Assembly: GCA_964559945.1 (NCBI GenBank)
Contig: CAZLJY010000002.1
Location: 7,856 to 71,855 of the forward strand
DNA from: an uncultured Gammaproteobacteria bacterium
GTDB taxonomy: Bacteria; Pseudomonadota; Gammaproteobacteria; Xanthomonadales; SZUA-38
Length of the DNA stretch: 64,000 nucleotides
Direction of reading: 5' to 3'
Part shown: piece by piece, positions 5,972 to 34,100 of the stretch
How positions within the stretch are numbered: position 1 is the stretch's first letter
Layout: each line of letters opens with the position of its first letter
Position numbers and translations under genes: made by a program
Notes under the pieces: generated by a model
Seen by the model: only the letters and a program-made list of their open reading frames with translations
Database searches by the model: none
What the model was told of the DNA's origin: nothing

Positions 5972-5975
5972 GGGA

Positions 5976-7328: not shown

Positions 7329-7334
7329 GCGTCC

Positions 7335-7868: not shown

Positions 7869-7906
7869 GCCTGCTTGTGTCCTAAGTCCTTGATGCCATC
7901 ACTATT

Positions 7907-10167: not shown

Positions 10168-13100
10168 ATGACGACTATTAAAAGGAATACAGGCACCTCC
10201 GCACTGCTTATGGCAGGCGGCTTGCTGCTAGGGACCGTCGCAGGCGCACTGGAAATACCGCCACCAGGGGACCCGTTTTTCATTCAAACCAACTCATCGG
10301 ACGCCGCCATTGGTCTTGGCGACTGGTACACCGCCAGCAACAACGGCGTTGGCGGTGGCTTTCACTACGTAGGCATATTCGTGCCCTGTGGCTGGCCGGT
10401 GGATCAAGAAATCCATATCGACTTGTTCAGTCCGGAAATGAATACCAACAATCCGGTTACCGATGAACCCAATAGCGGTGGATTAGGCACAACTACCTTT
10501 GAATTGTTTGGGGTTGGGACAACCGTCGCTAGCCCAGCAACCCCGGCGCCTGGTGCCGCGGGTTCGCTGTTGTCCATAGATTACCCGCCCAGCAGTGATC
10601 CCGAGCAGTGGATTCGGGCATTCACCCTGGGTGATGACGCTGGCGCAACGGCTCCCATCAGCTGCGGCCAATATGTGCTGCGCATTGGCTCAACCCAAGA
10701 TGATCAAAATGCTTGGCGACTGCGGGTAGGGTTCGACGATGACAACAACCCTAACAATGCATTTCCTCCCAACTGGGATGATTTAGACGGCGTTCCTGGG
10801 ACCGATGACGAACTGCTGGTGGGGCTTTATCAATACGCCTTTCAACAGAACTCCGGCGGTGTGCAGTGCAACACCTTATTTGAGTTTGTCGAGGAAAACT
10901 CTAGCTGCCCTAGTTCTCCGCCAACTCCTCCAGACAGTAATGTCTGCTTTAACAACTTTGACATGGACAACAACACCAGAGTCCGTTATTACCCGCCTCT
11001 GACCCCCCTGGACCCGAACGGGCTGATTGGAGGCGTTCCAGGCACCCTGTCAGGTAACGGTGTGTGGAATGGGGGAACTCAAACCACCCGAGGCGGTGAC
11101 GTCATTACCAACCCTGATGTGGGTTGGTGGGGCATTGTGACCTGCTTGTCTAACAACAATCAGCTGGCCCAAGATGCCCAGGAGAATGTTCCTCAATTTA
11201 ATCAAATCCCCCCTATTCCGGTGATTGAATTGTTGAAAGATGATGGAACAGTGGTTGCCAATGCTGGCGATACGCTGACCTACAACATCCGCTTTGAGAA
11301 CATTTCTGACGACGACCTACTGCCCGGCGCAGCCCGCAATTTGCAGTTAGTGGACACGCTACCGTCGGACGTGAGCTATGTATCTTGCGCCATCAACGCA
11401 CCCTTCAGCGGGGTTTGTAGCGAGTCCGGTGGAGTGGTGACTTATGACATCACTGAGACTGTATTGGCGGGAGACGTTGGAACCTTAAGCCTAGTGGTAA
11501 CGATTGACCCAGCGGCAACGTTTCCGTTTACCAACAACATCGTTGCGACCTACACCGATAGCTGGGAAGTAGGCACCTATACTGCCGAAGATGACGAAAC
11601 CACCTTTAGCGCGACGCCCCTTAGCCTGGTCAAAACCGTCGACACCCCCCTTGCCGCAGTGGGCGATGAGGTCAACTACACCTACACGATCACCAATATC
11701 TCTCCAGACCCGGTAGTGGTCATTGATCTGGTTGACGACAAAATTGGTACGTTCCAATTTCCCGAGCAATTTCCCAATGCAGTTGCGCTGTATGACTTCT
11801 CTCAAGGCCCAGACCCGGACATCGTACGCGATACCTCGGGATTTTTGTCTACGCTAGATTTAACCGTGGAAGCGCCGCCGGTGGTCTATGAACTGAACCC
11901 TGAGCGGATCGACATCAACACCTCCAACCGGATATCTAACGCCACCGACAACAATAAAATTGTTAGTGAATGCCAGGCCGAAGGCCAATTTGCTCTGGAA
12001 GCCTGGGTGCAGCCTCTTGGTGTTTTACAAGGTGGACCAGCACGAATTGTTCATTCATCCTTAGACGATGCCAATATCAATTTCAGCCTCTATCAAGACA
12101 ACGATCAATACGGTTTCTTCATTCGCACGCCGTCCAATACCGATCCAGTTAATGACATCGTACTCAATACCGCCCCGAGTTCTGTCAGCACCGACCTGAC
12201 CCATCTTTTGGTCGTGGTCTCGGCGACTGGCGATGCAACGCTATATCAAGATGGTGTGGTGTCAGCATCCGCTAACGTGGGCGCAACCAACAACTTCAGT
12301 AACTGGGATACCAGTTGGGATTTTGGCCTCGGCAATCAGTTCTCAGCGGCGCCAACATCAAGCGCGCAAGATTGGCAGGGGCAAATCTACAAAACTGCCA
12401 TTTACTGTGATGAAATTCGCCCAGAAGACGCGGGCAACCTCTTTAACCTTGGCAGTGAAAACGACCCTAGCGGCAACCGATTGCTAGAGCCCGGTGAGCA
12501 GGTGGTGCTGACTGCCCCCTACACAATTACCACCAGCGATTTCCCCGGCCCAGTGGTCAACATCGCTGAGGTGCGTGGCCTTACTGCCGGCGATCTTAGC
12601 TTTACCGTCACAGACACTGAGTCCGTCGACATCGATACCCAAGCGCTGGAGCTGACCAAGCAATCGGATGCCACCGGCGAGGTGGTCCCTGGGCAAATTA
12701 TCACTTACACCTTGACCGTCACCAATACCGACAGCATCACCCACACCGGTCTAACCGTGGTAGATCCCTTGCCTGCTGGCACGAGCTACGTCCCACAGTC
12801 CACCCAGGTTCAAGGACGGCGCGCACAAGTCATCGACTATCGGGACAACTTTAACGACACGCCAGTCACCTATTCTGGATCCAGTGGGGCGACACCCTGG
12901 GCCGGAAGCTGGATCGAGCTGGATAACGGTGCCAGCGATGGCCCGGCCGCAGGTGAGGTATTCATAAGCGGCGGCGAACTCCAGTTTGATCAGCCCGATT
13001 CTGCCGACGATACGGACTTTGACACCCTCCAACGGGCGGCTGATCTGAGCGGTGCCAGCAGCGCAAACCTCACCTTTGACTTCGACTTCGATGGCGCAAC

Positions 13101-16100
13101 CGAAGACTGTGATGGCGCTCTGGGCGCTGATGATTGCCTGTTTGCGGAAGCGTCCAATGACGGCATCAATTGGACCACTCTGGATACACTCGGTGGCGAG
13201 CCTGACAACAACAATGGCACCCGCACCGTTGCTATACCTGCCGGCCTTGTGGGCGCCACCACCCAAATTCGTTTTAGAGCTCTGGGCTTTCGCGGTGGCG
13301 ATGAAAACGTCAGCGTCGATAATGTTGTGGTTTCTGCATCGCTGACCGGGCCGGTGAGCTTAGACAATGTTCCGGGCGGCGCTAACGATTTGGACGATGG
13401 GGTACCCCAGGATCTGGTCACAACAAACGACAACCTGATTCTCAACCCGAATGAATCCATGACGGTTACCTTTCAAGTGCAAGTGGATGATCCGCTGAAC
13501 TCCAATATCGTGGCCATTCGTAATTTGGCGTCCGCTGACTCAGACCAAGGCACCCCCGCGGTGGCTGAAGTGCTGGATCCGGTGCGACCGCTGGGTGGGC
13601 AGATTGGCGATTCTGTTTGGCTGGATGCAGATGCTGATGGCATCTTCGATTTAGGTGAAGCGGGTCTTGCCAATGTTGTGGTAGAACTCATTGACCCCGC
13701 CGATGGATCAGTCATTGCAACCACAACGACCGACCTCACGGGCCGCTATCTATTCCCCAACTTGCCTGCTGGCGACTACGATGTAAGAGTCGACACAAGC
13801 ACCCTACCTGCTGGGCTGGTTGCCGGCCCCGGCAACAACAACCCCGCCGGTACGTTTACCATCACTGGCGCTGAACAATTCAACAATGCCGATTTCGGTT
13901 ATGTCACCACTCCTGGCGACGCCATCATCGGCGACAGCGTATTTTCTGACACCGACGGGGACGGCCTGCAGGACCCTGGCGAGGCCGGTTTTGGCGGCGT
14001 AACCGTAGAGTTGCGCGATGCCCTCACCGGTGCGGTGATTGCCACCACCACCACTGGCCCAGACGGTCGCTATCTGTTCACTGGAGTCGCCCCAGGCACC
14101 TATGTAGTGAACGTTACGGATACGGGCAACGTCCTGGCCAACGCCAGCAGCACCACCGGTGGCAATGAGTCTGCGCCGGTATCAGTAGGTGCAGGGGACG
14201 TCATCACCGATGTTGACTTCGGTTATCTGGATCCGTTTACCTTCAGTCTGACCGACGACGTGTGGTTTGATGCAGACGGCAATGGCCTTCGTACCAGTAA
14301 CGAAAGCGGTATCAGCGGGGTTAGCGTGAGTCTGCTTGACGCCGCTGGCAACGTGGTTGCCACCACCATCAGCGGAGCCGACGGTTCAGTGACATTCTCT
14401 GGTTTGCCCAACGGCGACTATCAACTGGCTCTTACAGACACCCAGGGCCGGCTGACTGGCTTTGGCGCCACAACCCCTGGCGCGGTCAATCGCTCGGCGA
14501 CTAACACCATTAACAACAGCGACGCCAGTGGTCGCAACTTCGGCTTCAATCTGCCCGGACTCGTCGGCAACGAAGTGTTTTCCGACGCCAACGGCAACGG
14601 CATCTTGGATCCTGGCGAAGTATTGATTCCGGGGGTTGATCTATCCCTGTTCGTCGACGACGGCGATGGTGTGTTCGATTCCACTGTCGATACATTGGTC
14701 AATTCAGACCAAACCGACTCCGGCGGTATCTACGACTTCCGCGGGTTGGCGTTCTCCCAGTACTTCGTCTCTCTGGATACTACCCAGCCAGAGTTGGCCG
14801 GTGCTACCTTGACCACCGGCGACTCACAAACTGGTGGTAACGCTGGCGGCGCGCAAATCGATGTCACCTTAAGCGGTGGTAACGGCGGCGTATTAACCGC
14901 CGATTTCGGATTCCTGAATTCCGCCCTGCCAGATCTCAGCGGCAATGTCTTTGAAGATCTGGACCGAGACGGCGTAGACGATGGCGTAGCCGAAGCGGGC
15001 TTCGCGGGCGTCACCATCGAACTGATTGCTGCAGGTCCTGATGGTGTGCTGGGAAGCGCCGATGACCTGGTGGTGGCTACCGCTCTCACCGACGCCAATG
15101 GCGACTATGAGTTTGTCGACGTACCGCCAGGCGACTACCGCCTTGCTGTCACCGATCGCAGCCAGGTTCTCACTGACTTTGGATTGACCAGTGGCTTAGA
15201 TCAGCTGGATCTGACAGTCGCCAACAGCGATATCAACGATCTAGACTTTGGCTATGCCCGAGCCTTTGGCGATGCCAGCCTGGGAGACTTGGTGTGGCTG
15301 GATGCCAATGGCAATGGCATCAACGAAGCGGGAGAAAACGGTATACCCGGCGTCACCCTGAACCTTTTTGACGCCGGCCCAGACGGCGTCATCGGCGGCG
15401 GTGATGACGTGTTGATTGCCAACACGGTTACCGATCAATTGGGCGGATTTGATTTCAAGAACCTGCCAGCGGGTCGCTACTACGTAGATGTTGACGACAG
15501 CACGATTCCACCAGGCTTAACTTTGAGCCCTGGCCTTACGGACCCCAGTGCTGTGGTTGCTCTGGGCGCCGGCGATAACAACGACACCTTGGAATTCGGT
15601 TACCGTCCAACCCCTGGCACCGCCTATATCGGCGATCAGGTTTGGATCGACGCTAACGGCAATGGTGAATTTGATCCTGGTGAAGCTGGCCTTCCTGGGG
15701 TTACCGTTGACCTGGTTGGTGCCGGGGCGGATGGCCAGTTAGGCACCGCAGACGACCTTACCCTTAGCACCGTCACCGATGGCGATGGAACCTACGCCTT
15801 CGACGGTCTGCCCCCAGACACCTACGCAGTCACGGTGAACACTGGCAGCCTGCCCGCAGGCTTCAATACCACGCCAACCAACGCTCAGGAAACCTACCAG
15901 CTGGTCGCTGACGCGGATACGGCCTACGTGCTGCTGGACTGGGGTTTTCAGCCCCAAACGCCATTGGCGTCATTGGGCGACCGAGTCTTCATCGACAACG
16001 ACGGCGATGGTGTACAAGATGCCGATGAGAGTGGACTTGGCGGGCTCACTATTGACTTACTGGGCCCCGGTCCAGACGGCATCTTCGGTACCGCAGATGA

Positions 16101-19100
16101 TGTGGTACTAGCCTCTACTGTGACCGACGGCAACGGGGACTACGATTTCACCGGACTGAATCCCGGCGATTATCGTGTCTCATTGACCGATACCGCAGGC
16201 GTATTGACAGGGCTCAACCCCACGACCGTCAACCCAGGCACAGTAACTTTAGCTGCCGGACAGGATTTTGATGACGCCGACTTTGGCTTCTTCCCAGCCT
16301 CCAGCTTAGGCTCGGTGGGCGATCTGGTGTTCCACGACGTCAATGGCGATGGCGTTCGCCAACCCAATGAATCAGGCATCGAGTCAGTGCTAGTGGAGCT
16401 ATGGTTGGACACCGACAACGACGGCGTGATTACGCCAGGCGTCGATAACCTGGTGCGCAGCACTCGCACCGACGTTAACGGTGAGTACGAATTCGGTGGG
16501 GTTACGCCGGAAGACTACCTGGTGCGCCCAGCGCCTCAGAACTTCCAATCAGGCGGCGTCCTGGAGGGCACCAATGCCACTTCTGGCACCGCAGGTAGCA
16601 ACAACAACGCTCAGGCTATACCGCTGCCACTATCCGTTGACTCGGGCAACCTGAATCCCAACTTCGCCGACTTTGGCGTCAATGCTCCGGCGCCCTTCAG
16701 CCTGGCAGGCACGGTGTTTGAAGACATCAGCAACGATGGCTTTGACCAACCCGGTGAACCTGATGTTGGCGGCGTTACCGTTCTGCTGTTTAGAGATCTG
16801 GACGGCGACGGTTTGCTGGGCCCCAATGATCCGGTTTTCGGCATGGCGACCACCGACGCCGACGGCGACTACCTGTTCGATAATCTGCCCCCTGGGGACT
16901 ACTTGGTCAGCACTGACGTGATCGGCTCGCGCCTTGCTGGCTACTTCCAGACCACCCAGACGGTATCACGCGGAGTGGAACCGGTTACCGGCAATAGCGG
17001 CGACACCATCACAGAAGTTGACTTCGGCTTTTTCAATGGTGGCCTCACAACAACGCCAGTGACCCTGTCCTATTTCCGCGCGACACCGGAAAAAGGTGGG
17101 CTTCGTGTCCAGTTCGCCACGGCAACAGAGACTGGCAATATCGGTTTTGCCATCCACCATCGCAGCGCCAATGGCGCCATCAAGCGGGCCGCTCCTATGA
17201 TGGCCTCCAAGGTGGTTGATTCGACCCAATGGCAATCTTACGAGACCTTCCTGACTGGAAGTTCGGCGACCAAATTGTGGCTCAGCGATATTGACACCCG
17301 CGGGGTAGAAACCCTGCACGGGCCGTTCGAATTGAATCGGGACTACGGCAATAGCCAGCCTCCGCAGCCCATCAACTGGCAAGCGATTCGCGAACAAAAT
17401 TCCCAGACGCTTTTGGCCAAGACTGCTCGCAAGGGCGATAGCAACACCTCATCGGTAGATCTCACCATCACCGAGTCTGGGATCGCTAGAGTTAGCGCAG
17501 ACCAACTCACCAGTGCTGGATTAGACCTAACCGCTGTCAGCGGCTCCGAATTGGCACTGAGTGTGAATAACGAGCATGTAGCGGCTCGGGTCAGCACTGA
17601 TGGACTGTTCGGATCAGGCGACTTTGTCGAATTCCTGGCCGAAACTCGCGATAGCCTTTATGGCTCTGACAATGTCTACCAATTGACTGTCAATCCGGTT
17701 GCCGCTCAGCGGGTGCAGGTTAACAGCGAGTTGCCGCAGAACCTGGATCCTCAAATCACCGAAACTGCGCTGGTGACATTAGCGGAAAATAACGAGTACA
17801 GCTTTGCCTCCCCCACCGGCGACCCCTGGTTTATGGAAGGTATCCTCGCCTTCACCGATGAAGTTGAGGCCAGTTATGACCTCTCATTGGACGGTTACTC
17901 TGGTGGCAGTGCCAATTTAACCGTTGATCTGTGGGGCGTTACCGACCTCCCCGAGAGCCCGGATCACCATATTCAGGTTCTGGTTAACGGCCAACAGGTC
18001 AGCGAGCTATTTCTAGACGGTTTGAGCCAGGGCCAAATCAACGTTCAGGTACCCCAGACGGAGCTGGTTGACGGCATCAACACCGTCACCGTTCGATTGC
18101 CAGCAGATACTGGCGCTCAGTTTGACCTGGTTAACGTTGAAGCCATATCAATGAGCTACCAGCGGGCACCAAGAATCGATGGCGGAACCGGCAACGTGGG
18201 CGTAAGCAATAACGCATCGCCACTGAGTCTCCATCCCGACACTCTGTTCGCCAGTTCTTTTGAGGTCTTGCCAGGAGCGTCATTCTCGGTCTCCGGTCTG
18301 ACCAGTAACGATGCGGTGGTTTACGCCGAAACCGACGCAGGTCCGGTCTGGATGCAAAACGCTCGGACTTCCGCTAACGGCTCTGACATCACCCTGGACG
18401 TGCCAGGGGTGCCCGGAGCTAATGGGTTTGTCATTAGCCAACTGGATTCACTGGTAGAAGTCTCCGTCAGCCCGACCCGGTTGAACAACGAGCTTCTCAG
18501 TGATCCTGCGGACTACCTAATGATTGCTCACCCGGTGTTTGTAGATGCCATCGAACCGCTGGCTCAATTCCACCGCGATCGGGGCTTAACCGTTCGGGTA
18601 ATCAACGTGAACGACATTTACGCCCAATATTCAGCGGCCCAGATTGATGCTAACGCCATCGACAGTTTTATCGCTGATGCTGTTCCGGCACTGGATACCC
18701 GCTTCGTGTTGCTGGTGGGTGGTGATTCCTACGATTACCACAATTACCTTGAGATGGGATCACTGAGCTTTATCCCATCGCTGTACGGCCAGGTCCATGC
18801 AGTGGTTCGCTATGCACCCCTAGATGCTTTGTACGCCGATATCGACGACGACCAAGTGCCTGACGTGGCCCTTGGCCGATTCCCAGTGCGCACTGTTCAA
18901 GAGTTAAACTTCATGATCAACAAGACCGTACAGTACGCGTCCAAAACGTATTCTCGTCAGGCAGTGTTTGCCGCCGACGAAGCGGAACCGTTAACACCCT
19001 TCGGCGCCATCAGCGACGACGTGATCGATAGTTTGCTCAGCAACTGGTCAGTAACCCAAAGCTATTTGGACAACGTATCTCCGGCCCAAGCCACCCAGGA

Positions 19101-19548
19101 TATTCTGGGCGCCATCAACAGTGGTGTTGCGCTAACTAACTACTTCGGCCACTCCGGATTCACCGAATGGGGACGAACCGATCGACTGCTCACTTCAAAC
19201 GACGTGGATACACTCAGCAATGTCGGCTTGCCCACCGTGGTCAATCAGTGGGGTTGCTGGAATGCTTACTACGTATCACCGTTTGCCGACACGCTGGCTC
19301 ATCGCTTCTTGATTGGCGGCGAACACGGGGCTGCCGCGATCCTCGGCCCAGTATCCCTAACCCGGCTGTCGTCCGAACAACTACTAAGCAACTTGAGTTT
19401 CGCCGAGATGGTCAGCGCTGGACAATCCGTCGGCCAATCGATCGTGAATGGCAAACAAGAACTAGCAGCTAATCACGAGAACCGCGAAGACGTTGTTCTG
19501 GGCTTCACCCTGCTAGGTGACCCGGCAATTCAGATAGAAAACGAATGA
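10168..19548 (+). CDS. Giant (3126 aa) secreted multidomain surface protein with a C-terminal peptidase C25 (gingipain-like) domain
   Basis: AAAGGA lies 8 nt upstream of the ATG and there is an 18-nt gap from the barrel gene. The signal peptide is [17 protein letters not shown]. DUF11/TIGR01451-type modules are present ([14 protein letters not shown]..., [15 protein letters not shown]..., [15 protein letters not shown]...LPAGTSY). It also has a LamG-like domain, 10 SdrD-B-like repeats and a C25 domain. Confidence 0.9.
   Translation: [3126 protein letters not shown]
11781..12460 (+). other. LamG / concanavalin-A-like lectin domain within the 3126-aa protein
   Basis: [26 protein letters not shown]...FALEAWVQP...ARIVHSS...[18 protein letters not shown]...[15 protein letters not shown] follows the Laminin_G_3 pattern. 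Confidence 0.6.
13594..17043 (+). repeat. Ten tandem SdrD-B-like (Cna-B fold, Ca-binding) repeats of about 100-125 aa
   Basis: The recurring motif is GDxVW/FxDxNGNGxxDxGExGxxGVTVxL...DGxYxFxxLxPGxYxV, e.g. [30 protein letters not shown]...[18 protein letters not shown]. Confidence 0.8.
18500..19545 (+). other. Peptidase C25 (gingipain-like) catalytic domain with an intact His/Cys dyad
   Basis: The domain begins [37 protein letters not shown] and continues [15 protein letters not shown]...ALGRFPVRT. The candidate catalytic His is in NYFGHSG (codon 19150-19152). The candidate Cys is in [10 protein letters not shown] (19255-19257), 35 residues later. The domain ends LLGDPAIQ. Confidence 0.75.
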
Positions 19549-19746: not shown

Positions 19747-20856
19747 CTACTGGGGAAGGCATTGGAGAATCTTTTCAATATCTTGCACAGTATTGTAAAG
19801 ATGGGGAGACAGACGGACGCCCTCATTGCGTGCATCAAAGTAAATTTCCGCGTTGCCCAGATTTTTCTCAAAATCTGATTGCCGCTCACCAAAGTTTAGT
19901 ACCACTGAACCGCCCCGCTGTATCGGATCGATCGGGGACACTTGGAACTCCGGCGCCACAGCGCTGCATAACTTTTCGCTAAGTTCTTGGTTGTGGCCCT
20001 GGATTGACCTTAGTCCGACATTAAGCAAACACTCAATCGAATGAGCGGCTGTCAAACACGGTGCAACGCTGGGAGTCGCCCCCCAGAAGCGAAGAGCATC
20101 GGGCGCGTATTTAAAATGATGAATATCAAATTCAAAGGGATTGGCGTGGGAAAACCAACCTACATCCCGTGGCTGACATTGCTCCACTTGCTCAGGATTG
20201 ACCCACAAAAAACCGGCGCCGGAACCACCACACAACCATTTCAGACAAGAACCCGCGATGAAGTCGACATTCCACTCATTGGCGTCTATTGGTCGGATGC
20301 CAATAGACTGGGCCACATCGACAATACTCACGATGCCCCGTTCACGGGCTATCGTCGCCAAAGGCGCAATATCGTGACATTCACTGGTATTGGAATGCAC
20401 ATGGGTTAGCAGCACGGCATGCACCTGGTGGTCCATAAACCGATCCCAGGTTGCCGGGTTCAAGGTATTTTCGCTGCGGGGAACCATCACGGGTTCGAAG
20501 CCCAAATTCCGGGCATTGGAAAAGACAAACCCTAGTGATGGGAAGGCTCGCTCAGAAATCAGCAGTTTGTTTCGACCTTTTCGCACGGGCAGTGCACCCA
20601 AGACCTGACTGACGGCAGCGGAAACGTTGGGCTGGGGACAAATCATGTCTGGCTGGTGCTGCAATACCTGAGCCAGGCCTTGCCTAAACGTATCAATGGC
20701 TGCTAACCAATGTGGCCACAGCTGGTCGTCTCCGGCCGTCCAAGGCGCCAATAGCGTGTCTTCTAAATGGGCCTTGAGGGAGGTTGGCGGAATACCCGCA
20801 GAGTGGTTCAACAGGTATCCTGGCGCAGCTGCCCAAGCGTCCGGAATGCTTAGCAT
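19747..20856 (-). CDS. Kynureninase-family PLP-dependent hydrolase (short form, 369 aa)
   Basis: LLTHVHSNTSECHDI, DVAQSIG and FIAGSCLKWLCGGSGAGFLWV (PLP lysine) parallel kynureninase LTHVNYKTG...GCTYKYLNGGPG..FVWV. GWFSH parallels GWFGH. The ATG overlaps the upstream gene's stop by 7 nt. Confidence 0.75.
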   Translation of the reverse strand: MLSIPDAWAAAPGYLLNHSAGIPPTSLKAHLEDTLLAPWTAGDDQLWPHWLAAIDTFRQGLAQVLQHQPDMICPQPNVSAAVSQVLGALPVRKGRNKLLISERAFPSLGFVFSNARNLGFEPVMVPRSENTLNPATWDRFMDHQVHAVLLTHVHSNTSECHDIAPLATIARERGIVSIVDVAQSIGIRPIDANEWNVDFIAGSCLKWLCGGSGAGFLWVNPEQVEQCQPRDVGWFSHANPFEFDIHHFKYAPDALRFWGATPSVAPCLTAAHSIECLLNVGLRSIQGHNQELSEKLCSAVAPEFQVSPIDPIQRGGSVVLNFGERQSDFEKNLGNAEIYFDARNEGVRLSPHLYNTVQDIEKILQCLPQ

Positions 20857-22034
20857 GGCTGGACTCCCAGGTGATTGCGGATGGTTTGCATATCCTTATA
20901 GCGACTGAGAATGTCATCTCGCGCAGCGGCAGTGCGCAAATCTTTTAGTTTTTCCAGCGCTGCTAATAACACTTCAAGAGGAGGCCCACTGGCAGTGATA
21001 TTTTTAAGGTGTTCGGTCGCCAGGGCATTGGATGGCTGTTGAATATAACGTTTCACCAATTGATCATGATGCTGGGTTGCTGTCACGCCATGGGCATCGC
21101 AAACCTTTACAAACAGTTCAACGTTGCGGTCGAAATAGGGCCCACCGTCGCCGGAGTGCAGACAATCAAGAATTTGATCCATTAGACTTTGCCGACGCAT
21201 GCAGTCTCGCAATCGGCTCTGATCGACCGGCGACATATACATAAATTTATCCACTAGCAATTGGGAATACGAGGTGTCCTCAGCCTGGCATAGCCCTAAC
21301 AACAGATCGATTTCATTGATGCCAGCAAAGTCTCCTGCGTTTGCACCTCGATATTCGGTTCGCCCAACCCGGTAAGGCTTATAGTAGGGCCTCACTGAAT
21401 AAAAAAAGCGGTCGGTATCAAGCTGGTCAAAAAGATGCTGGTTGTTTTGCGCGACCTCTTCCAAAGCGTTTTTTGCTGCGACCAGGAGGTCGGCAGTAAC
21501 GGGATGGGTTATACCCAAAGGTACCGTGTTAACCAATGCATCCGCCGCGCGTTTGAAGGCGAAAATTCCGCGGGTGTTGTAGTCAAGAAATAGAGCTTCG
21601 TCGTGGAGCGAGGTGAAACACCGGTATCGCCCGTTTTCCGCCAGGTTATGAGTCGATAAATGACTGGTTGCGAAGCGCGGAGCAACACCCAGTGAGGCGC
21701 CAATGTGCATAGCCAATCCGGAGGCCTCTACTAACGGCGAGGTTTGTTCCCGTGAAGGCTCTGTCAGTTCATGACGACGACAGGCTCCCATGTACAAGCC
21801 CACATCACCTAATAGGGCAAAGGCCGCCTCAAAACCTTCATCGGTGTTGCCTTCCCGATGCAGCTCGGCGATAAGTGCTCTACCCTCTTCTAACAAAGTA
21901 GTGCGTAATGACTGCCCGACCGCACCGACGTCTGCTCTGTCCTGCTGAGCAAAATAGAGGTTTTCCAGTTCGGTGTTGATTTCGATAAAGTCGCTGCGCA
22001 TCCAGGCGTAGAACTTTCTGACGTTAGTACTCAC
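20850..22034 (-). CDS. PrnB-like protein (monodechloroaminopyrrolnitrin synthase family; heme enzyme with TDO/IDO-type fold)
   Basis: [39 protein letters not shown] aligns by eye with my remembered PrnB sequence [50 protein letters not shown] aligns with APHLKLAERAY. I prefer the GTG at 22034, which is preceded by AAGGAAG-N5, over the ORF-track TTG at 22082. Confidence 0.65.
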   Translation of the reverse strand: [394 protein letters not shown]

Positions 22035-22196
22035 CAGGACTTCCTTGGCTCGGAGAAACAAGCGGGAAGTATTCCACAGCAAAACAATTCACGTCATAGG
22101 AAATTTATCCCACTGAATGATCATGCATAGAAAGTACTGCGATGGATTGATGGAGCCGACCCCAGCGATCGCTGAAGCCGGCGCCAATATTTAGGT

Positions 22197-25100
22197 TCAA
22201 CAGTCTCGACGGATCAGGCGACCTCTAGCAACCAACATCAGTAACATCATCATTATCAACAATGCCCAAGTATTGGTGGTAGGAATGGTCAACGGACGCA
22301 AGGTGGTAGTGATCACCGTGGGATCACTATTGTTACCCGGACCATCACCCTCAGGGTCGGCGTCTATGCCGTTTTGGGAGATATCGCTGACAGCACGGGA
22401 GGCGCCGATAGCCGTGGCAGTGGCGGTATTGGCATAGGGCGGCGCGGAGTCGCGGGCAAAGACCAAAACGGACAGCCGGATGAGGCCACTTTCACCCACA
22501 GCCAGAGAGTCCGTTCCAGCCAATAAATTGACGTCCGAATCGCCGTCATAGTTATCGTTAACCGTGAGCTCTGCCGAGAAAAGGTTTGTCACCTCAAAGG
22601 TCGCCGGTGCTGGGAATGTCGATACCAGGTCATCAACCACCTGAATCTGATCCAAGTCTACTTGGCCGGTGTTAAACACCCTCAGCTGGTAGCTAACCAG
22701 CGCGCTGTTGTCTGGCAACACCGCAGTGTAACCAGGCTGCGGCAACTCAACGTTGGCCAGATTTTTAGCCAGTCCAATCTCACCTAAGCCGGCGCCTCCA
22801 AGGGGGACGACGGTTGGGTCGCCGCCAACAACAGAGCCTGGATCATCGGAACTCACTGGGTCGGTCTCGTCCGAGTCCACCACTGCTTGGTTAATGATGG
22901 AACTCACGTCCCCTGGCAATGGGTCGTTTATCCGCACTTGGAAGGCCACAGTTTGTGTGGTGTTGGCAGCCATAGAGCCAAGGTTTACCGCAATACTGGT
23001 TTGCCCTGCACCGTTGCCGGTGATGACAGTGCCTGCACTGGTTATCACACTGCCATTAATTAACAGCGTATTGATATCCGGTGTGTCACTTAAGGTGACA
23101 TTGTTCGCCGTGCCGTTACCCACGTTTCGAATGGTCAACAAGTAGTCTATTCGATCACCACTGTTGTTCAGGCCATCAGCGTTGTCATCAAAGATGTTGA
23201 TCGCCGCCTTGCTTAACTCAAGGATGGGGTCCGCATCAATCGGCGTGCCGGTCGGGTCGTCATCGGTGGGTGAGTCCGGATCGTCCGTGGGCTCATCAGG
23301 GATGGTCGGGCCGGTGACCAGCCCTTGGTTGAACACCTGAGAGGCGTTGTTGATCACTGGGCTATTAATCGTCACGTCAAAACTGACCGTCACGCTGGCG
23401 CCACCAGCGAGGGTACCCACATTAATCTCGACGTCAGTATCCGCGCCGCCATTGCCGCGAGTCACGATTCCCTGACTAGTCTGCACGCTGCCAGGCACCA
23501 ATGTGGTGTTAACGTCAGGCGTATCGGTGAACACAATTCCGGACGCCCCAGCGTTACCACTGTTTGAAATGGTCACAATGTAGGTCAGCGTGTCACCCGG
23601 TGAGCCAACGCTATTGTTGTCCGCATCAACACTTAAGGTATCGGTTTTACTGGCCTCAATAACCGGATTAGAAGTCACTGGCGTGTCGGTGGTGTCGTCA
23701 TCGTCCGGGGTGTCCGGATCATCAGAGGGTGCAACCGGCGCGTTATCACTGAATACCACCGCTTGGTTGGATACCGAGGTGACATCGGCAGGAAGTGGAC
23801 TGTTAATGGTCACGTCAAACGACAGCGAGACCGTATTACCACCAGCGATATCGCCGAAATCTACAGCCACATCAATATCCCCAGGGGTATTGCCCTGAGT
23901 CACCGTTCCCTGAGAGGTCACCACTGAGCCAACCACTAAGGTGACGTTAGGATCCAGGTTATCGTTGGCAAAGGTGCTTATGGCCGCCTGGTTGCCGTCG
24001 TTGTTGACAGTAACAATATAAGTCAGGGTGTCGCCGGGAGAAGGCGAACCACTGCCATCGGCATCAACTCTTAGGATGTCAGTTTTGAGTACCTCCAGAT
24101 CCGGCGCAGCAACAATCGGCACCTCGGTCGGATCTCCGTTCGGAGCATCATCGGGATCATCCGTGGGCACTGTCGGCAGTTCGTTACTACCTACCAAGCC
24201 TTGGTTAACCAGTTCAGTCACACCCGCCGGCAGCGGCGAGTTCACGGTGGTCTGGTAACTGATGGATACTGAACTTGCGCCGCTCAGCCCACCAATATCG
24301 ATGGTGATAGTGCTATCACCCGCACCGTTACCGGTAACCACGGTGCCCGCGGAGCTTGCCACACTGCCGTTGACTAAGGTGGAGTTAATGTCCGGTATGT
24401 CCGTGTACTGAACGCCGGTAGCACCACCGTTACCGATATTGTCAATAACAATTGTGTAGAGCAGCGTATCGCCGGGACTGACAGCCCCGTTGTTATCGGC
24501 ATCGTTCTGCAGAGCAACAGCTTTGCTCGCTTCAATGATTGGCGCTGAGGTCACCGGTGTTGGCGTTGGATCATCTTCATCAGGGCTGTCCGGGTCATCC
24601 GTCGGCTCGGTGGGCTGCTGATCAGAGTCAACAGCGCCCTGGTTGGACAGTAACGTTACGCCCGCTGGCAATGGGTTGTTGATCGTGACATCAAAGGTAA
24701 TGGTCACACTACCTCCCCCGCCAGGGATGCCGCCTATAGCTACCGCCACCTGGGTATCACCCGCGGTGTTGCCAAGGGTGACTGTTCCCATGGTTGTTGC
24801 CACCGAGCCGGCTACTAGCGTGGTATTGGCATCGGGGATGTCTGTGAACTGAACCCCGGACGCGCCGCCGTTGCCGCCATTGAGCACCGTCACGGTGTAT
24901 CGCAGCGTGTCACCTGGCGATGCAATCGTGTCGCCGTCGGCATCCACCAACAAACTGTCGGCTTTAAAGGCTTCCAGGTTGGTGGCCGAGGTTAGCGGTA
25001 CCACGGTGGGATCGTCATCTGGCGGACCATCCAAATCGTTGGAAGGCTCCGCTGGTAGGCCATCGCCACTGACAAAGGCTTGGTTCACCAACTGGCTGAC

Positions 25101-28100
25101 GCCAGCGGGCAGCGGATTGGGAATATCCACCTGGTAACCGACAGTGACGGACGCACCGCCCCCTGGCAATGTGCCAACGTCTACCGAGATCGCGGTATCG
25201 CCCGCGGTGTTGCCGATGGTGACTAAACCTGCGGTAGATATCACCGAGCCGGCGATAAAGGTGCCATTGGCATCGGGAGTATCGGTGATCACCACTCCTG
25301 TGGCTGCCGCATTGCCGATGTTGATAGCAGTCAGCGTATAGCTGAGGGTGTCGCCCGGCGACGGTACACCATTGCCATCGGCATCTGTCAGTAGCGTGAC
25401 CGATTTATCCAACTCCAAGATCGGCGTCGCGGTTACCGGCGTTGGGGTGGGTTCATCCTCAGACCCGCCATCTGGATCATCCGTTGGCTCATCTGGCAGC
25501 TGATCGCTGCTGACAAAACCCTGGTTGACCACCTGGATCACACCTGCCGGCAGAGGATTGTTGATCGTCACATCAAACGTAATGGTGACCTGAGCACCAC
25601 CACCTAAGGAACCGATATCAACACTGACGTCGGTGTCGCCGGCGCCATTACCCATCAATACCGTACCCAGGGTCGTCACCACAGAGCCTGGCACCAGTTG
25701 GGTATTCGCTCCGGGCGTATCATTGAAGGCCAGGCCAGTTAATCCAACATTACCAACGTTGTCGATCAACACCGTATAGCGCAGTACATCACCCGGTGAG
25801 GGCACACTGTCAAGGTCGTTGTCTGTCAGCAAGGCATCGGACTTGAACGCCTCCAGCAGCGGATCAGTCGTCACCGGTGTACCAGTAGGATCCCCGCCCG
25901 GTAAGGTGTCTGGATCGTCCGTATCAATGGGCGGTAATTCAGCGGAGCTCACGGTGGCCTGGTTGGCTACCATGGTGGTACCGGCCGGTAGCGGATTGTC
26001 TACCACAACCTCGAAGGTCACCACCGCAGTCTCGCCATTACCCGGAATCACTCCGGTATCCACTTCCACGTTTACGTCGCCTGGGGTATTACCCAACACA
26101 ACGCTGCCGCGACTGGTCATCACACTGCCCACATTAAGGGCCACATTGGGGTCTAAGTTGTCGTTGACAAAGGTGGCTGTAGCGCCCTGATTACCCGTGT
26201 TAGTGATAGTGATGGTGTACAGCAGGGTATCACCGGGAGAAGCAAAGCCGTCGCCATCGGCATCGACCAACAGGGCATCGGTTTTGATCGCCGACAGCAC
26301 AGGGGTTGCGGTGAGCGGCGTGTCCGTCGGGTCATCGTCCATTGGCGTATCTGGGTCGTTGGTGGGCTCATCGGGTAATTCGTTGCTACCCACAACACCC
26401 TGGTTACTAAGCTGGGTGACACCCGCCGCCAAGGGGTCATCGATCAACACATCAAACGTGATAGTGCGACTAGCACCACCACCAGGGATGGTGTCCAGAT
26501 TCACGCTGATGGTCGTATCACCGGCGGTATTACCGGTCACCACAGTACCCAATGGCGCAACCTGTACTGAGCCAACGATCAATGCGCTGTTGCTGTCTGG
26601 CATATCGTTGAAGGTCACACCCGTCGCCGCAATGTTGCCGGTGTTCGTAATGTTGACGGTGTAGCGCAGAGTGTCACCTGGGGACGGGACGGTATCGCCA
26701 TCGGCGTCCACCAGTAATACATCAGCCTTGTCTGCCTCCAAAATTGGCACCGCTGTTACCGGTGTGTCGGTAGGATCGTTGGGATCTGCGTCATCCGGGT
26801 CGTCAGTGGGCACAACCGGGGTTTGATCACTACCCACCAATCCTTGGTTAGCCACTGTGGTAACGCCTGCCGGCAATGGATTATTGATAGTGACGTTGAA
26901 GCTGATCGTGACGCTATCGCCGCCACCTAAAAGGGTGCCAACGTTAACCGTGATCGGTGGCGTGCCGGCGTTACCACCGGTAATCGTTCCCCGACTGGTA
27001 GTGACCGTTCCAGCCACCAGCGTGGTATTGGCATCTGGTGTATCGGTAAAGGTCACACCGCTGGCAGCCTGGTTGCCGCTGTTGGTAAGGACCACGGTAT
27101 ACAGCAGCTCATCGCCCGGCGACGGTATGCTGTTGCCATCGTTATCAAGGAACAACGAATCGGTCTTAGTGGCGCTGATGATAGGCGTACCTACCAGCGG
27201 GGTGATATTCGCGTCGTCGTCCGGACCGGTGCTTGGATCATCCGTTGGCTCGGACGGCAGCTCGTTGGAATCAACCCGCCCCTGGTTAACCACTTGGGTC
27301 ACACCCAATGGCAGAGGGTTGTTGATAGTGACATCAAACACAATGTCCACACTACCGCCCTGACCAGCCAGAATTCCGATATCGACGGTGACCGGAGGGA
27401 CGCCGGCGTTACCACCGGTAATGGTGCCCTGGGTGGTTGTGACAGACCCGCTAACCAAGGTGGTGTTGGCATCCGGAGTATCTACAAACATGACACCAGA
27501 CGCGTCCTGATTACCACTGTTGACCACATTGATGGTATAGCGAAGGGTGTCACCCGGAGACGCCACACTGTTGCCGTCCGCATCAATCAACAGGGCATCG
27601 CTCTTGCTCGCTTCGATAACCGGTTCGGCAATGAGCGGAGTCACCGTCGGATCATCATCCGGCGCTGTATCTGGATCGTCGGTGGGTTCGTCGGCCAACT
27701 CATTGGAGCCAACCACACCCTGGTTTGACACTTGAGTGACGCCATCGGATAGCGGGTTGTCGACTATCACATCGAAGGTGATCGTGACAGTGGCCCCGCC
27801 ACCCATCATGGTGCCTATATCAATGTTAATGGGTGGCGCGCCCGCGTTTCCTCCAGTGACAGTTCCCTGGGTAGTGGTAACCGAACCTGCCACGAGCGTC
27901 GTGTTGGCATCGGGGGTATCAGTAAACGTCACTCCACTAGCAGCGCCGTTGCCGCTATTGGTGATCACTACCGTATAGCGCAGCGTGTCGCCCGGTGAGG
28001 GTGAACTACTTGCATCAGCGTCCACCAATACCGCATCGGTTTTGCTAGCTTCCAAAATGGGGTTGGAATTAACCGGAATCACGGTGGGGTCATCATCGCC

Positions 28101-31100
28101 TACCGGGCCCGGATCGTCGGTGACCACATCGGGGACTTGCGCACTGGACACAACACCCTGGTTCGTCAGCGTGTTGATACCGGCAGGAAGTGGGTCATTG
28201 ACTGTGGTGCGGTAAGTAATGGTGGCAGTGCCGCCGCCAGCGGCCAATGCACCCAACGCGACCTCTACAGGAGGGGTGCCGGTATTGCCGTCGGTAATTG
28301 TGCCTTGAGTTGTGGTTACCGTTCCGGCAACCAAGGTGGAATTCACATCAGGGGTATCGGTAAATACCACGTTGGTAGCGGACGCACCGCCAGTGTTGGT
28401 AATGACAATGCTATAGCTCAGCACATCGCCAGGGGTTACATCGCCCGAGCTGTCGACGTCATCAAATAGCACGCCGGTTTTGCTGGCACTGAGTTCGGGC
28501 AAATTGATATTTTCTGAATCAGTGGCGGTATCGGTTCGATCCTCATCCGGTGCGCCGGGCATGGTAGTGCCACTGAGATTGGCAACGTTCACCACCGGCA
28601 GCGCTGGCAGCGGATCGGCAAACATGACTCGGGCGGTAAAGGACAAAGTCTCACCCACTTCCAACGACGTATCAGGCAAGCTGCCTGCAGGGTCAGAGGA
28701 AAATCGCAGAGTGGTTTGGCCCGCTGCTGGTGTATTGACCAAAATCTGCCCAATGAAGCCAGCAGGCACCGTATCGATAATGGCGGTTGCCAGATCCCAG
28801 TTGGTTTCGCTAAGCACATCATCCAGAACCAAATCGTAGGCAGGGGCGGTGCCCGTGTTGGTGATATCGAACTGAAGCGTGGCGATCAGTCCGTTGACCT
28901 CGGCGAGGGTTTTATCCACTGCCAGGTTAGGCTCAACCACATCAATGTCTGCGGTAGCCGAGTCCGTCACCGTGCCAGTGGGTCCTTCAAACTCCAGAGT
29001 TGAGGTATTGATGAGTAGGTCACCGGATTCGTTGGTGTCATCGTCGGCCGGTACTGAAGGGCCAACATTGACCACCACACCGCACACCTGCAGCACCAAC
29101 TGATCATCAACCGTTACCGCGTTGTCGGTGGTGGGATTGGTGACATCACCCAAATTAAAGGTGGCCGTGTCGTTGCCCACAGGCGCGAGGTCGTCGGAAA
29201 TCACCGCGGTGAACCCATTGGTCACGCCCAGCATTCCTGAACCAAATACCGTGGCACTGGTGAGTTCAAGAACCCCCTCGTTGCCGTTAGCGCTGCCCGA
29301 GGGCAGTGTGTCACTCACAATCACTTGCTGGGTGACGCCTTGGGGGAAGGTGACTGTGGTGTGGTAGCACACCTCCTCACCAATGGTTGCGTCAAACAGG
29401 AATGGATCGCCAAAACTTTGTCCGGTATCCGGGTTGCTGGTTGAGAATACGGTCTTCTCAATGCTCGGCTCGTCGACAGTGAATTGACCGGTGTCGGCAT
29501 CGTTACCGTCACCGTTTTCATCACCGGCACCACCGGGGGTCGAATCGAACTGCAGTGACGCGTTGTTGACGTAGCTATCGCCGGAAATCACCGTTGGATC
29601 AACGGTGACGTCATAGGTGATGGTGCAAACGTCCCCTAAGTCCAGCTGGGTAATGGTGAACAATACGGCAGGGTCGCCGGTACCGTCAGCCACAAAACCC
29701 TGGCAAGCGGCGCTGGATGTGAAGTTAGTTGGTGCACCGGAACCCAGTGGGTCGGGTAGTTGGTCAGTGATATCCAGATCATAGGCCACCGCGCTGGAAG
29801 CACCAGTATGGGAAATGACCAGGGTAAAGGTCAGCGTATCGCTGCCGCTGACCTCAACTAAGGTATCGGGCGTCTTGTTGATTTGCAGCAACGGCTGAAC
29901 AATGTCTACATCCACCGAATCCATTAACGGCATCTGGGGTGTGCCGCCGATATCAAAGTCCAGACTAGCCTGATTACGCGCATTGTCGGTACCGGGGTTG
30001 CCGGCAACATTGCGCACCCGGGCAACGATAGTGAATTCAATTTGGTCATCTGCCGGCAGCGTTGCGTCGGTGGCAACGTTAACCACGTTGCCGAGATCCC
30101 ACAGGAAGAAGTCGTCGGTACCGTCCAGCGGCGCAGTGTCAGATATCGCATCGGGTGAAGCACCCAACGCTAAGCCGCTGCCGATGGTGATGTCAGCGCC
30201 AATACGAGACAGGGTGGCTGAAACCAGTTCGAAGGTCGCTGACGGCGTGCTGCCCGGGAACGGCAGTTGGTCGCTGATGACAGCGTTTTCTAATGTGCCG
30301 TTGGGAAGATCAAGAACCAAGCGATAGGTCACCTCTTCACCGATGGTCAGATCAGGCTCCGGCCCTAACACCCCATCGACATCCGGCGTATTGATATCGC
30401 CGGAGGAGACAAACAGTTTGTCCAGACCCGGGCCAGAGATATCCACCATAAACTCAGCCATATCTCCGTAGCTACGTCGTTGTTCATCTGCCTCAGAGGC
30501 ATCAGTACTGAAGTAGTCAAGATCGGCGACGTTCATGATCGTGTCACCCAAGGTCGCGGCCACATTAATTTGGGCCTGATAGGTGAAACGGCAGACATCG
30601 GCCACGGGTAGGCTGTCAAAACCAATGCGCAATCCCACACCATTGGGATCAGACTCGTCCAGCAGATCCGGTGCGCCGGTGCAGGTTGCGCCAGAAGGCG
30701 CGCCGGCGGCAGCCAAGGTGCCCGTCACGTAGGTCAACTCTGCGGGCAATTGGTCAGCCAACAACACATCGATGGCAGCGGCATTGGAGATTCCGGTGTG
30801 GCCAATGTCCAAGGTGTAGGTAATGGTATCGCCGGCATCGCCAGAGGTGACCGAACCACTCTTTGCCACCATCAAGTCAGGTTCAGCGATTTCCACATCC
30901 GCCGAGGCAACCACGTCGCTGAAGGTATCGGACGACACAATCATGTTATTGCGAACGGGCAATCCCGTGACGCCGTTGGCCGCTATATCGGCGACCCGAG
31001 CTTGAACCAGGAAAGTGATTTGGTTGTCTGCAGCAACCGTTGCCGGCGAATCGTTGGCATTAGTCAAATTGCCAAAATCTAAAATTAGCTGGTTATTGAG

Positions 31101-34100
31101 GGTGTCGCCGTTGGTGTCATTGACGGTTTGCAGCGGTGGGTCGTTGTCCACGGTAATTTCGCTGCCGATGGTGATGGCAGATACCGATAGGTATTCCAGC
31201 ACCGTCGGCGCAATGGGAAGTTCGTCGCTAATCATCACGTTGGCGGCAGATCCATCTGGGATGTTGACGGTCAGCTCGTAAGTGATCACCTCGCCAATGG
31301 TCACGTCCACAATGGCCGGGTCAAAATTCCCATTGTCCGTGGTTTGGGTGCGATTGGTGACCGTTTTGATTGCCATCACTGGGGCCACCATAAAGCTGGC
31401 AGAACCCTGGGCGTCATAGTCGTCTGAAGCACCCTGCCCGTCCCCAACTCCCGCTGCACCCGATCGCTCGGAGTCAAATTCGTCGATAAATGGTGACAGA
31501 TTCGTGTTGTCACCCGGTAGCGACGTCCATTCGGTACTGGCGGTATTCACAATATTAGTGCCGATGGGGGTGGCAGCATCAACTTGAACGTCAAAGACGA
31601 TCTGACAACTGCTGCCTTTGGTAAACGTATCCCAACTGGCCGTAATAACCCCACCCGCCTCGGCAGGTCCAGCATCGGGGTTATCCGCGCAAGCTTGCAG
31701 TGTCGGCGGCGACATGACCGTTAGGAATGGGGGCAGCGCATCGCTTAACTCAACATCAAAGGCATCGGGACGGTTTGCACCTCCAGTGACGGCCACCGTA
31801 ATGGTCACCTGGGTAACATCACCCGAATCACCGATGGCAGGACTAAAGGCTTTGCCGATGGTGACCACGGGCTCGCGAATCCCCACGTTATCCGCATTGT
31901 CGTTAGCCAAGGTGGTGTTGTCCTGGCGCCATTGGGCATTGTTGTTTCGGTTGCTGCCGCTGTTGGCGTTGGTGGAATCCAACAGCACAACTTCGTACTC
32001 AATAACAATATCGGTACTTCCCGCACCATTGCTGCTGGGAACCACAACGGTGCCGAAGTCAAAAACGGCTTGGCGGGCCACATCTCGAGCGTTAACGCCG
32101 CTGTTGGTAATAAAGGGGTTGTCGGTGGCTGAGTCGGTGTTGCCATCATTGGTACAGCCAGCGTCCAACGCCACGCCATTCGCCGGGGTCACCGTCGCAG
32201 TGCCGGTGTTCACTGAGGTACAGTCAACAAAGGCCAGCGAGGTATCTAAAATGTCCACCAATGTGATATCGGTAGAGGTTCCTTCTGGCAACGTAACAGT
32301 GGTGCGATAGCGCACGATCGAACCAATAGTTACCTCATTTTCTGTGCCGTCAGCGTCCAAACCCAAGGCTGCTTCCGTTGGGCTTACGTTGACCAATTCC
32401 TTGTTCACCAAGACTTCAGTAATGGTGGCGTTGGCCTCATCAACCACTTCGGGGAAACGATCCGTTGAGCCGTCACCGGGCGCCCAAGTGACGCCGCTTT
32501 CGTTGGTGATGGTGCTACCCGGCTCCACGCTGTCAGGCAGCGTGCAGGAAATCTCGATCAAAATCCGGTTGTTGCCATTGAGATCGGTTCCCGGAGCCAA
32601 GGCTGCGCCGCCCACCGAGGCCCCGTTAGTACCGTCATCGTCAAAGGTGATTCCCGCGCCGAACAAATCCCCAGAAAAACTGGTGTAACGCGTATCCGTG
32701 CCATCGATGGCACCCGCTGTGCCGCCATTGTCCAGGAATACACGAGGCTGACCGGCATCATCGTTAATAGCGCACGATAGCAAGCTGCCGCCAGCAGCAT
32801 CATCGGTAGCGATTACATCAAAGGCGCTACCGGTGCCAACGTTTTCCAGGGTAATCAGGTACGTCAGCACATCCGCAGCATCGGCATCGCTGATATCCCC
32901 ATCGCTGATTGTTGCATCGGAGGTTGCGTTGGTGCTGCTGACGATTTGCTTATCCAAAGTCAATTCTGGCGCACCAACAATAAATAACGCGCCGGTGTCA
33001 GAGGCTGACGGAGACTGATTGCCATCGCCGTTGACATTCAAGATATTGCTCAAGCTCAGCAAATCGGTAAACGCAGCAGGCTGCACCGTCATAGCGATAT
33101 CCAACTGAAGCACAACGGGCGCCACCGCTTCCGACACTTCATCCCAGGTAAAGACCCAAGAGTTGGGTGAATCGGGCGACGGTACTGTGCCACCGCCTGA
33201 ATCTGCCACAATGCTGGTCAGACCGACGTCCAGTCCGCCGCTTTCGAGATTGTGCGCTGGACCATAGTTGATGGTCGTTGCAGCAATAGACCCGGCTGGC
33301 TGACTAACCGTGGGGGCTGTGCCGTATTGTTCGGCATCAAAAATGGGAATCGGCCAAAAGTCTATCCACTGCAGGTTAACAATATCGGCTGCCTCCAAGG
33401 TCATGGTCAATCGATACACCACGTCCTCTCCAACCTGGTAAGAGACACCATTGGCTGGGCTACTGATCACCGTTTTGGTCAAGTCAAAACCAGCCACGTT
33501 AACCGTCGCGCCGGAGCCTTCGGTACAGCCCGGTAGTGCCGGTCCGCCCGCCAAACCCTGCACGGCATAGGTCGTGCTCACCGTGTTGGGTAAGCTATCG
33601 TTAATTCTGAGTGGTACCGGCGTTGCAGGGGTTGAGCCAAACCGACTCACATAAGTTTGATTGACGGTGGTGTCGTAGGTGAGTTGTCCTGTCGTACCTA
33701 AGCCAAGCTGATTGTCGCCAGTGAGCGGCAGCACACCCACGGTAAGATCATCAAAATCTAAAGTGATGACTTCCTCGGTGCCGTTCGGACCGGTTTGGGT
33801 AGTGACCGTAAAATCGGTGTTCTCCACAAGTGGAGTGCCATTTAACACTAAGGTTGAGCGGTCCAAGGTCAAGCCATCAGGCACCGTATCAACCAACACC
33901 AGATCAGTGAGTTCCGCAAAATCGGAGACTTGGTAGTCGATGGTGTAACTCACCGTGTCGCCGGGCACAACGAACCCACCCGGCGCGCCCTTCTGAACCG
34001 AAAAATGTCGGGCCACCAGCGTATCGTCGGTTTGGGTGGCGGCAGGAACAAAAATATCGCTGCCTTCAAATTGGGCGAGAAAACTGGCTGTGTTGGGAGG

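Follow-up and report, generated by a model that had tools for sequence, protein, structure and literature searches.

A putative drifted IPTL-CTERM sorting signal on a giant gammaproteobacterial adhesin and the exosortase predicted for its class

The 64,000-nucleotide stretch of contig CAZLJY010000002.1 analysed here (the window, at its full length of 64 kb) encodes a 4270-aa DUF11-repeat adhesin whose C-terminus resembles a sorting signal, which raises the question of the class to which this tail belongs and of the enzyme that would read it. Translation of the adhesin gene, taken from the list of open reading frames (ORFs), ended in ...TTTLRPLTIPTTNTWALLIMMMLLMLVARGRLIRRDC and a stop codon, i.e. 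in the tripartite order IPTTNTW / ALLIMMMLLMLVA / RGRLIRRDC that characterizes IPTL-CTERM signals. This confirmed an earlier annotation made from the letters alone (the sequence-only reading), which had described a short motif, a membrane helix, and a basic tail. The range given there, 22197–22286, covers IPTTNTW to the stop, but the leading T sits just outside, at 22287–22289. The tail makes up the final 29 residues, which is the location expected of an IPTL-CTERM signal, and the N-terminus of the protein is Sec-like (MVRIALLVMMALWGSSVWGQ; as read from the translation, a basic n-region leads into a hydrophobic core, and small residues precede Gln). Among window ORFs of at least 100 aa, only the adhesin ends in a hydrophobic helix with a basic cluster behind it. 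Its gene is preceded by AAGGAG upstream of the ATG at 35009, and Pfam assigns 14 stretches of the protein to DUF11 (312 bits), along with matches to DUF7927, DUF7507, and DUF7619. We read the tail as a probable drifted IPTL-CTERM sorting signal, though sub-threshold by itself; this assignment draws on a counterpart that passes the class model, on dissection of the motif, and on the interchangeability of signals among homologues, and not on the tail's own score.

TIGR04174, correctly given in the sequence-only reading as the IPTL-CTERM accession (model name IPTL_CTERM), has a curated cutoff of 20.5 bits. Scanning the window tail with this hidden Markov model (HMM), as had been proposed, gave a divided answer: the tail itself stayed below the cutoff at 10.3–10.7 bits, with an alignment beginning at the I of IPT, while kinship with the class emerged from its syntenic counterpart and from the dissection described below. 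This counterpart lies in a Lysobacterales metagenome-assembled genome (GCA_045106555.1; locus L002), where a C25 peptidase gene, in a region 83% identical to that of the window, is followed on the other strand by an aminotransferase gene, a PrnB gene, and a 4268-aa adhesin. The L002 adhesin ends in VPTLSTWALL… (VPTLSTWALLIMMTLLILLARRQLIGKD / RPMPVPTLSTWALLIMMTLLILLARRQLIGKD), and this tail, with the motif VPTLSTW, passes TIGR04174 at 25.2–26.3 bits.

The window motif keeps I, P, T, and W at conserved model positions and departs from them by L to T at position 4 and by G to A. The IPTT-for-IPTL deviation pointed out in the sequence-only reading is thus real, but reverting T to L in the window tail raised the score from 10.7 to 13.1 bits, a gain of 2.4 bits only, and the reciprocal L-to-T change lowered the L002 tail from 26.3 to 24.2 bits. 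Placed on a canonical helix and basic end, the window motif IPTTNTW scored 25.9 bits. Because the TIGR04174 match of the window tail was lost altogether once the motif was scrambled, replaced with a Gly-Ser linker, or mutated from W to A, the match depends on the motif; the sub-threshold score is due to the short Met-rich helix ALLIMMMLLMLVA and not to the motif. A scan of metagenome contigs for DNA encoding IPTL(S/T)EWG gave 124 matches running to a stop, 110 of them genuine C-terminal tails. The window helix is 31% Met compared with 9% in these 110 tails, and the stretch between the start of the motif and the first basic residue spans 20 aa, shorter than the canonical median of 24 (5th–95th percentile 21–25), while the 29 aa from motif start to stop fall inside the canonical 28–37. 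A real sorting signal can miss a curated HMM cutoff through helix composition and not through its motif, and automated pipelines would therefore leave such giant adhesins unlabelled.

No other CTERM model outscored TIGR04174 on the window tail, and PEP-CTERM, GlyGly-CTERM, MYXO-CTERM, and LPXTG were rejected as its class since none of their models matched it. The midcut-by-XrtH model NF033207, a 175-position profile with a cutoff of 45 bits, was matched by both the window and L002 tails at 20–23 bits over its signal-like region (profile positions 26–61); the full-length profile was not matched by the window tail. Mid-protein IPTL signals were seen separately in two metagenome loci (L020, 1222–3591, minus strand; L038, 1–344, plus strand), where an IPTLSEWG motif and helix pass TIGR04174 at 25–28 bits and are followed by about 85 more residues with two further predicted helices; these signals fail the midcut-by-XrtH model (19–20 bits).

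In a third genome (locus L205), a full-length orthologue of 4269 aa (P0311), 73% identical to the window adhesin, carries the tail PVPVTGAAGLLVL..., which scores 19.7 bits on TIGR04174; P0310 scores 11.5 bits. A tripartite tail is found at the same position in three related proteins, and its motif varies within the orthologous group from IPTT to VPTL, VPVD, and VPVT, with the Trp missing in P0311. Beyond these orthologues, an exhaustive search of representative sequences with the last 200 aa of the adhesin returned 1351 homologues, and a search of a 5.8-billion-protein database with the same query returned two matches, neither with the same tail. The homologues end in C-terminal domains of the type IX secretion system (T9SS), in LPXTG-type signals (LAFTG, LAYTG), in a PEP-CTERM tail, or in IPTL-type tails, five of which pass TIGR04174 (P0199, P0252 with IPTLSVWA, P0308, P0328, and P0318). 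Lineage-specific sorting signals have evidently been swapped at exactly the C-terminal position of the adhesin, and by these comparisons the DUF11 homologues would clearly illustrate how sorting signals are exchanged as modules. Across P0189–P0338 at least five C-terminal targeting elements can be told apart: T9SS, LPXTG, PEP-CTERM, IPTL-CTERM, and an end of the form ...GYNFTDFxDDL...GWFxxLxGxY, which looks like an outer-membrane barrel.

Which enzyme, then, would process such a tail? The sequence-only reading had held that the IPTL-CTERM class has no identified processing enzyme. This does not stand: TIGR04177 (cutoff 86 bits) describes exosortase H (XrtH), named as IPTLxxWG-CTERM-specific, and proteins matching it adjoin IPTL-tailed genes. 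Next to several canonical IPTLSEWG tails we found small membrane proteins with four predicted helices that score 88–218 bits on TIGR04177 and in which Cys, Asn, Arg, and His are invariant. An XrtH sequence search returned 3359 relatives, with JGI/UniRef names reading "exosortase H (IPTLxxWG-CTERM-specific)", and an XrtH profile matched at least 542 records in species-representative genomes. In 22 of the best 80 of these loci, XrtH and an IPTL-tailed gene are no more than 10 kb apart, and the tailed gene mostly ends directly upstream of the XrtH gene. That the natural signal tolerates variation can be seen from the tails in XrtH loci, among which are IPTLSEWA, IPTLSEWS, VPTLAP..., and PVPTV...; T at motif position 4 was not seen among tails beside XrtH. 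Literature searches for IPTL-CTERM, XrtH, and exosortase H returned no experimental study, and XrtH is the enzyme assigned to the class by prediction only. A surface destination of IPTL-tailed proteins is suggested by a Methylomirabilis S-layer protein with a predicted IPTL-CTERM domain (PMC8671808). In four metagenome loci (L015, L033, L103, and L067), a divergent XrtH (88–107 bits) has as its direct neighbour a membrane protein of some 200 aa without an NCBIfam match, and in L067 two XrtH paralogues flank the gene of such a protein.

As the sequence-only reading had stated, no exosortase, rhombosortase, or sortase was found among the window ORFs. Pfam was run on 34 of the 35 ORFs taken as genes, and the remaining one (41265–42404) is equivalent to the gene called as HflK on L001, a contig that overlaps the window. 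When the window was translated in six frames and searched with a purpose-built XrtH HMM, the best match reached 11.8 bits and lay antisense to the adhesin gene; the same HMM found no XrtH in L203–L212. Of 120 metagenome loci with canonical IPTL tails (their median length being 4.4 kb), 10 contain XrtH beside the tailed gene; among the 22 loci of at least 10 kb, two do. Since about 92% of the IPTL-tail loci thus have no XrtH in the DNA retrieved, an XrtH gene is usually unlinked from its substrates, and the empty window is ordinary and uninformative. The "missing enzyme" is accordingly no puzzle, because the class has a predicted partner that is usually encoded away from its substrates, and an orphan signal with novel, locus-encoded machinery is not supported.

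We asked how far the unusual neighbours of the adhesin, which the sequence-only reading had put forward as candidates for the missing machinery, belong to IPTL-CTERM systems. The neighbours had been correctly named, as Pfam and NCBIfam confirmed the C25 peptidase, the BBP2-like barrel, and the kinase/extracytoplasmic function (ECF) sigma factor pair. When the 10,672 ORFs of 200 canonical IPTL/XrtH loci were searched by BLASTP, they yielded no homologue of the C25 domain, the BBP2 barrel, the ECF sigma factor, or PrnB, and only generic kinase-domain matches (29–31% identity) for the window kinase. Together with the regulatory appearance of the ECF/kinase pair, this speaks against the proposed role of the neighbours. 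OmpR-type response regulators and Ser/Thr kinases occurred near XrtH in about 19 and about nine loci, respectively, but at 29–38% identity to the window genes this recurrence was taken as generic family similarity and dismissed as a link.

The reading that we favour, and hold to be probable with some reserve, is that the adhesin bears a drifted IPTL-CTERM tail that is most likely cleaved by an exosortase of the XrtH type whose gene lies in another part of the genome. The N-terminal signal peptide would take the adhesin through Sec, and the C-terminal helix would then retain it in the inner membrane with RGRLIRR in the cytoplasm. An exosortase-family enzyme, most likely an unlinked one of the XrtH type, would recognize (I/V)PTxxxW at the periplasmic face and cut off the helix and tail, so that the adhesin could be released or transferred en route to the surface. 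We infer cleavage, the identity of the enzyme and its presence in the source organism, and the route through the outer membrane by analogy with sortase/LPXTG, exosortase/PEP-CTERM, and archaeosortase/PGF-CTERM. Several observations weigh against this reading. The window tail stays below the curated cutoff of TIGR04174, and its helix is about four residues under the canonical median and unusually Met-rich. The motif drift among orthologues, with the loss of Trp, means that recognition may be relaxed, changed, or lost. The assignment of XrtH to IPTL-CTERM is computational only, the XrtH genomes retrieved (including the 120 matches listed of 3359) were all Burkholderiales-type and not Lysobacterales, and the XrtH HMM found no XrtH in the window, L001, L002, or L205, which applies to the DNA at these loci only.

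Part of this evidence would also fit an exosortase-family enzyme other than XrtH proper, encoded elsewhere and tuned to (I/V)P(T/V)xxxW-A. The tail is sub-threshold for TIGR04174, orthologue motifs drift, the window locus is Lysobacterales while the retrieved XrtH genomes are not, and NCBIfam holds many small exosortases near XrtH (XrtX, XrtM, XrtY, and XrtF) that cross-match XrtH sequences. We nevertheless consider such an enzyme unlikely, as the tail of the L002 counterpart passes the IPTL-CTERM model, WA, WS, and Trp-less variants lie directly upstream of bona fide XrtH genes, and no other CTERM model scores higher on the window tail. The same low score (10.7 versus 20.5 bits) and the short, Met-rich helix could instead mean that the signal is decayed or repurposed and serves as an uncleaved C-terminal membrane anchor only, in line with a tail that diverges faster than the body (P0311 is 73% identical overall but has little of the tail in common). 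This, too, seems improbable to us: the tripartite layout is retained in all four related proteins, the window motif yields a passing score once joined to a canonical helix, homologues bear proven sorting-signal classes at that position, and a 4270-aa adhesin tethered to the inner membrane could presumably not reach the surface of a diderm cell.

A role of the locus-encoded C25 peptidase calls for a closer look at its subfamily. Proteins of this subfamily (about 40% identical, about 1000–1200 aa) are spread across many phyla, and 12 C25 homologues all retain the catalytic-type His and Cys. A convergent C25 gene is kept beside the adhesin operon in three genomes (window, L002, and L205). An independent pair was found in L207 (ENA ERZ27271399, contig k119_166482, 967–13116), where a C25 peptidase gene (P0015, 38% identical) adjoins, in divergent orientation, the gene of P0328, a DUF11/SdrD adhesin of 2812 aa that ends in a passing IPTL-CTERM tail (25.8 bits on TIGR04174). 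In L207 it is the adhesin that carries the SdrD_B repeats; in the window they are fused to the C25 protein. These pairings suggest a link between the C25 subfamily and such adhesins that falls short of showing tail processing, and the C25 peptidase that recurs beside IPTL-tailed adhesins may help to mature them. A more specific proposal, drawn from the convergent gene in three genomes and the L207 pair and helped by a weak likeness to the T9SS sortase PorU, is that the C25 peptidase and BBP2 barrel process or attach the tailed adhesin. We regard this as very unlikely. On the PorU model NF033707 the window C25 protein reaches 143 bits, well under the cutoff of 420, and the 200 IPTL/XrtH loci hold neither C25 nor BBP2 homologues. 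No C25 gene lies near three other IPTL-tailed DUF11 homologues, no tailed adhesin is present in five of six other C25 homologue loci (L203, L204, L207–L210), no barrel is present in L207, and the IPTL-CTERM class already has a candidate enzyme. Equally doubtful is the extended form, in which the C25 peptidase of this lineage, possibly with the BBP2 barrel, would be dedicated to maturing, releasing, or attaching giant DUF11/SdrD adhesins with IPTL tails, in place of an exosortase or after it; if true, it would place a T9SS-like surface-attachment step outside the Bacteroidota. Apart from L207, these six C25 loci show different surroundings. Asparagine-synthase genes stand directly beside C25 in four of them (L203, L208, L209, and L210), two of these four also have the polysaccharide-export genes Wzy_C, Wzz, and Poly_export, and the L204 homologue is surrounded by SLH/Ig giant proteins. 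In L208 (13248–16221), Transglut_core3, PqqD, NTP_transf_5, and Asn-synthase genes beside the C25 homologue resemble a lasso-peptide maturation cassette.

The coordinates of the adhesin, of the parts of its tail, and of the neighbouring genes are collected in Table 1.

Table 1 Features of the adhesin gene and its surroundings in the window.
Feature	Position	Strand	Basis or remark
DUF11 (CLIPPER) repeat surface protein/adhesin gene	22197–35009	-	ORF list, translation, Pfam
Adhesin stop codon	22197–22199	-	translation
Basic tail RGRLIRRDC, predicted cytoplasmic	22200–22226	-	translation
Hydrophobic, predicted membrane-spanning helix ALLIMMMLLMLVA	22227–22265	-	translation
Signature motif IPTTNTW, variant of IPTLxxWG	22266–22286	-	aligns to TIGR04174 positions 1–7
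Putative N-terminal Sec-type signal peptide MVRIALLVMMALWGSSVWG, before Q	34950–35009	-	read from translation
ECF sigma factor	35494–36069	-	TIGR02999, 196 bits; upstream of adhesin, same strand
Ser/Thr kinase with tetratricopeptide repeats (TPR)	36057–38195	-	Pkinase and TPR domains
PrnB-like gene	20850–22082	-	PF08933 PrnB, 600 bits; directly downstream of adhesin
Class-V aminotransferase, kynureninase-like	19747–20856	-	Aminotran_5, 77 bits
BBP2_2 outer-membrane barrel	8980–10149	+	Pfam/NCBIfam
3126-aa SdrD_B and DUF11 repeat protein with C-terminal C25 peptidase domain	10168–19548	+	Pfam/NCBIfam; convergent with adhesin operon

The order of these genes is the same in L205 (kinase, ECF sigma factor, adhesin, PrnB, aminotransferase, and a convergent C25 gene); L002 shows the adhesin-to-C25 part of this order, and L001 runs from the kinase into the beginning of the gene after it. 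This conservation across L205 and L002 fits a regulated adhesin operon. The ECF sigma factor gene (TIGR02999) is translationally coupled to that of the TPR kinase upstream of the adhesin, an arrangement conserved in the window (35494–38195, minus strand), L205 (76–2774), and L001 (8755–11168), and the pair probably consists of regulators of the adhesin operon, i.e. a kinase-controlled ECF switch, and not of sorting machinery. Upstream of the adhesin, the window and L205 have one short patch in common (TGTRAACAASTGT), with inconsistent spacing, and a promoter and terminator scan around the operon end gave nothing above shuffled controls. Downstream of the adhesin, the PrnB-like and kynureninase-like aminotransferase genes recur in three genomes (window 19747–22082, minus strand; L002 3842–6129; L205 15798–18145), an unexpected conserved pairing of tryptophan-chemistry enzymes with a giant adhesin. 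Elsewhere in the window, positions 3936–8587 (minus strand) encode a hybrid histidine kinase, a Ras/Roc-like small GTPase (PF00071, 122 bits), a 450-aa protein without a family match, a 177-aa coiled-coil protein, and an OmpR-type response regulator.

Compared with known sorting systems, the locus recalls the T9SS with PorU (C25) and PorV in that a giant surface protein has genes for a C25 peptidase and an outer-membrane barrel as neighbours, and Bacteroidota-type homologues of the adhesin bear T9SS C-terminal domains. In contrast to T9SS substrates, the adhesin has a membrane-helix tail and no beta-sandwich domain (its last 499 aa have no match to TIGR04183, Por_Secre_tail), and the C25 protein is far under the PorU cutoff and the barrel of the BBP2_2 type, not PorV. 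With the LPXTG/sortase system the tail shares functional logic and position, and five homologues (P0230, P0258, P0273, P0302, and P0305) end in LA(F/Y)TG; yet the window tail lacks LPXTG, no sortase is present among the window ORFs, and the host is a diderm gammaproteobacterium. The PEP-CTERM system with exosortase A/B (EpsH; Haft 2006, PMC1569441) has the same tripartite design and an enzyme superfamily that includes XrtH, and a homologous DUF11 protein (P0299) has a PEP-CTERM tail at the same position. Likeness of the window barrel to the PEP-CTERM-associated EpsL is weak (72.9 bits versus a cutoff of 275), and unlike PEP-CTERM (TIGR02595) tails, the window tail has no Pro-Glu-Pro and no PEP-CTERM model match at E up to 10. 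From the IPTL-CTERM/XrtH system the window tail differs by T at position 4, A for G, a shorter helix of 31% Met, and a sub-cutoff score, and no XrtH was seen in the lineage DNA covered (window, L001, L002, and L205). It agrees with that system in its place at the extreme C-terminus, the Sec-type signal, the order of motif, helix, and basic end, the canonical total length, and a syntenic counterpart that passes the model; the tail appears to be a drifted instance of the IPTL-CTERM class in a Lysobacterales-like gammaproteobacterium.

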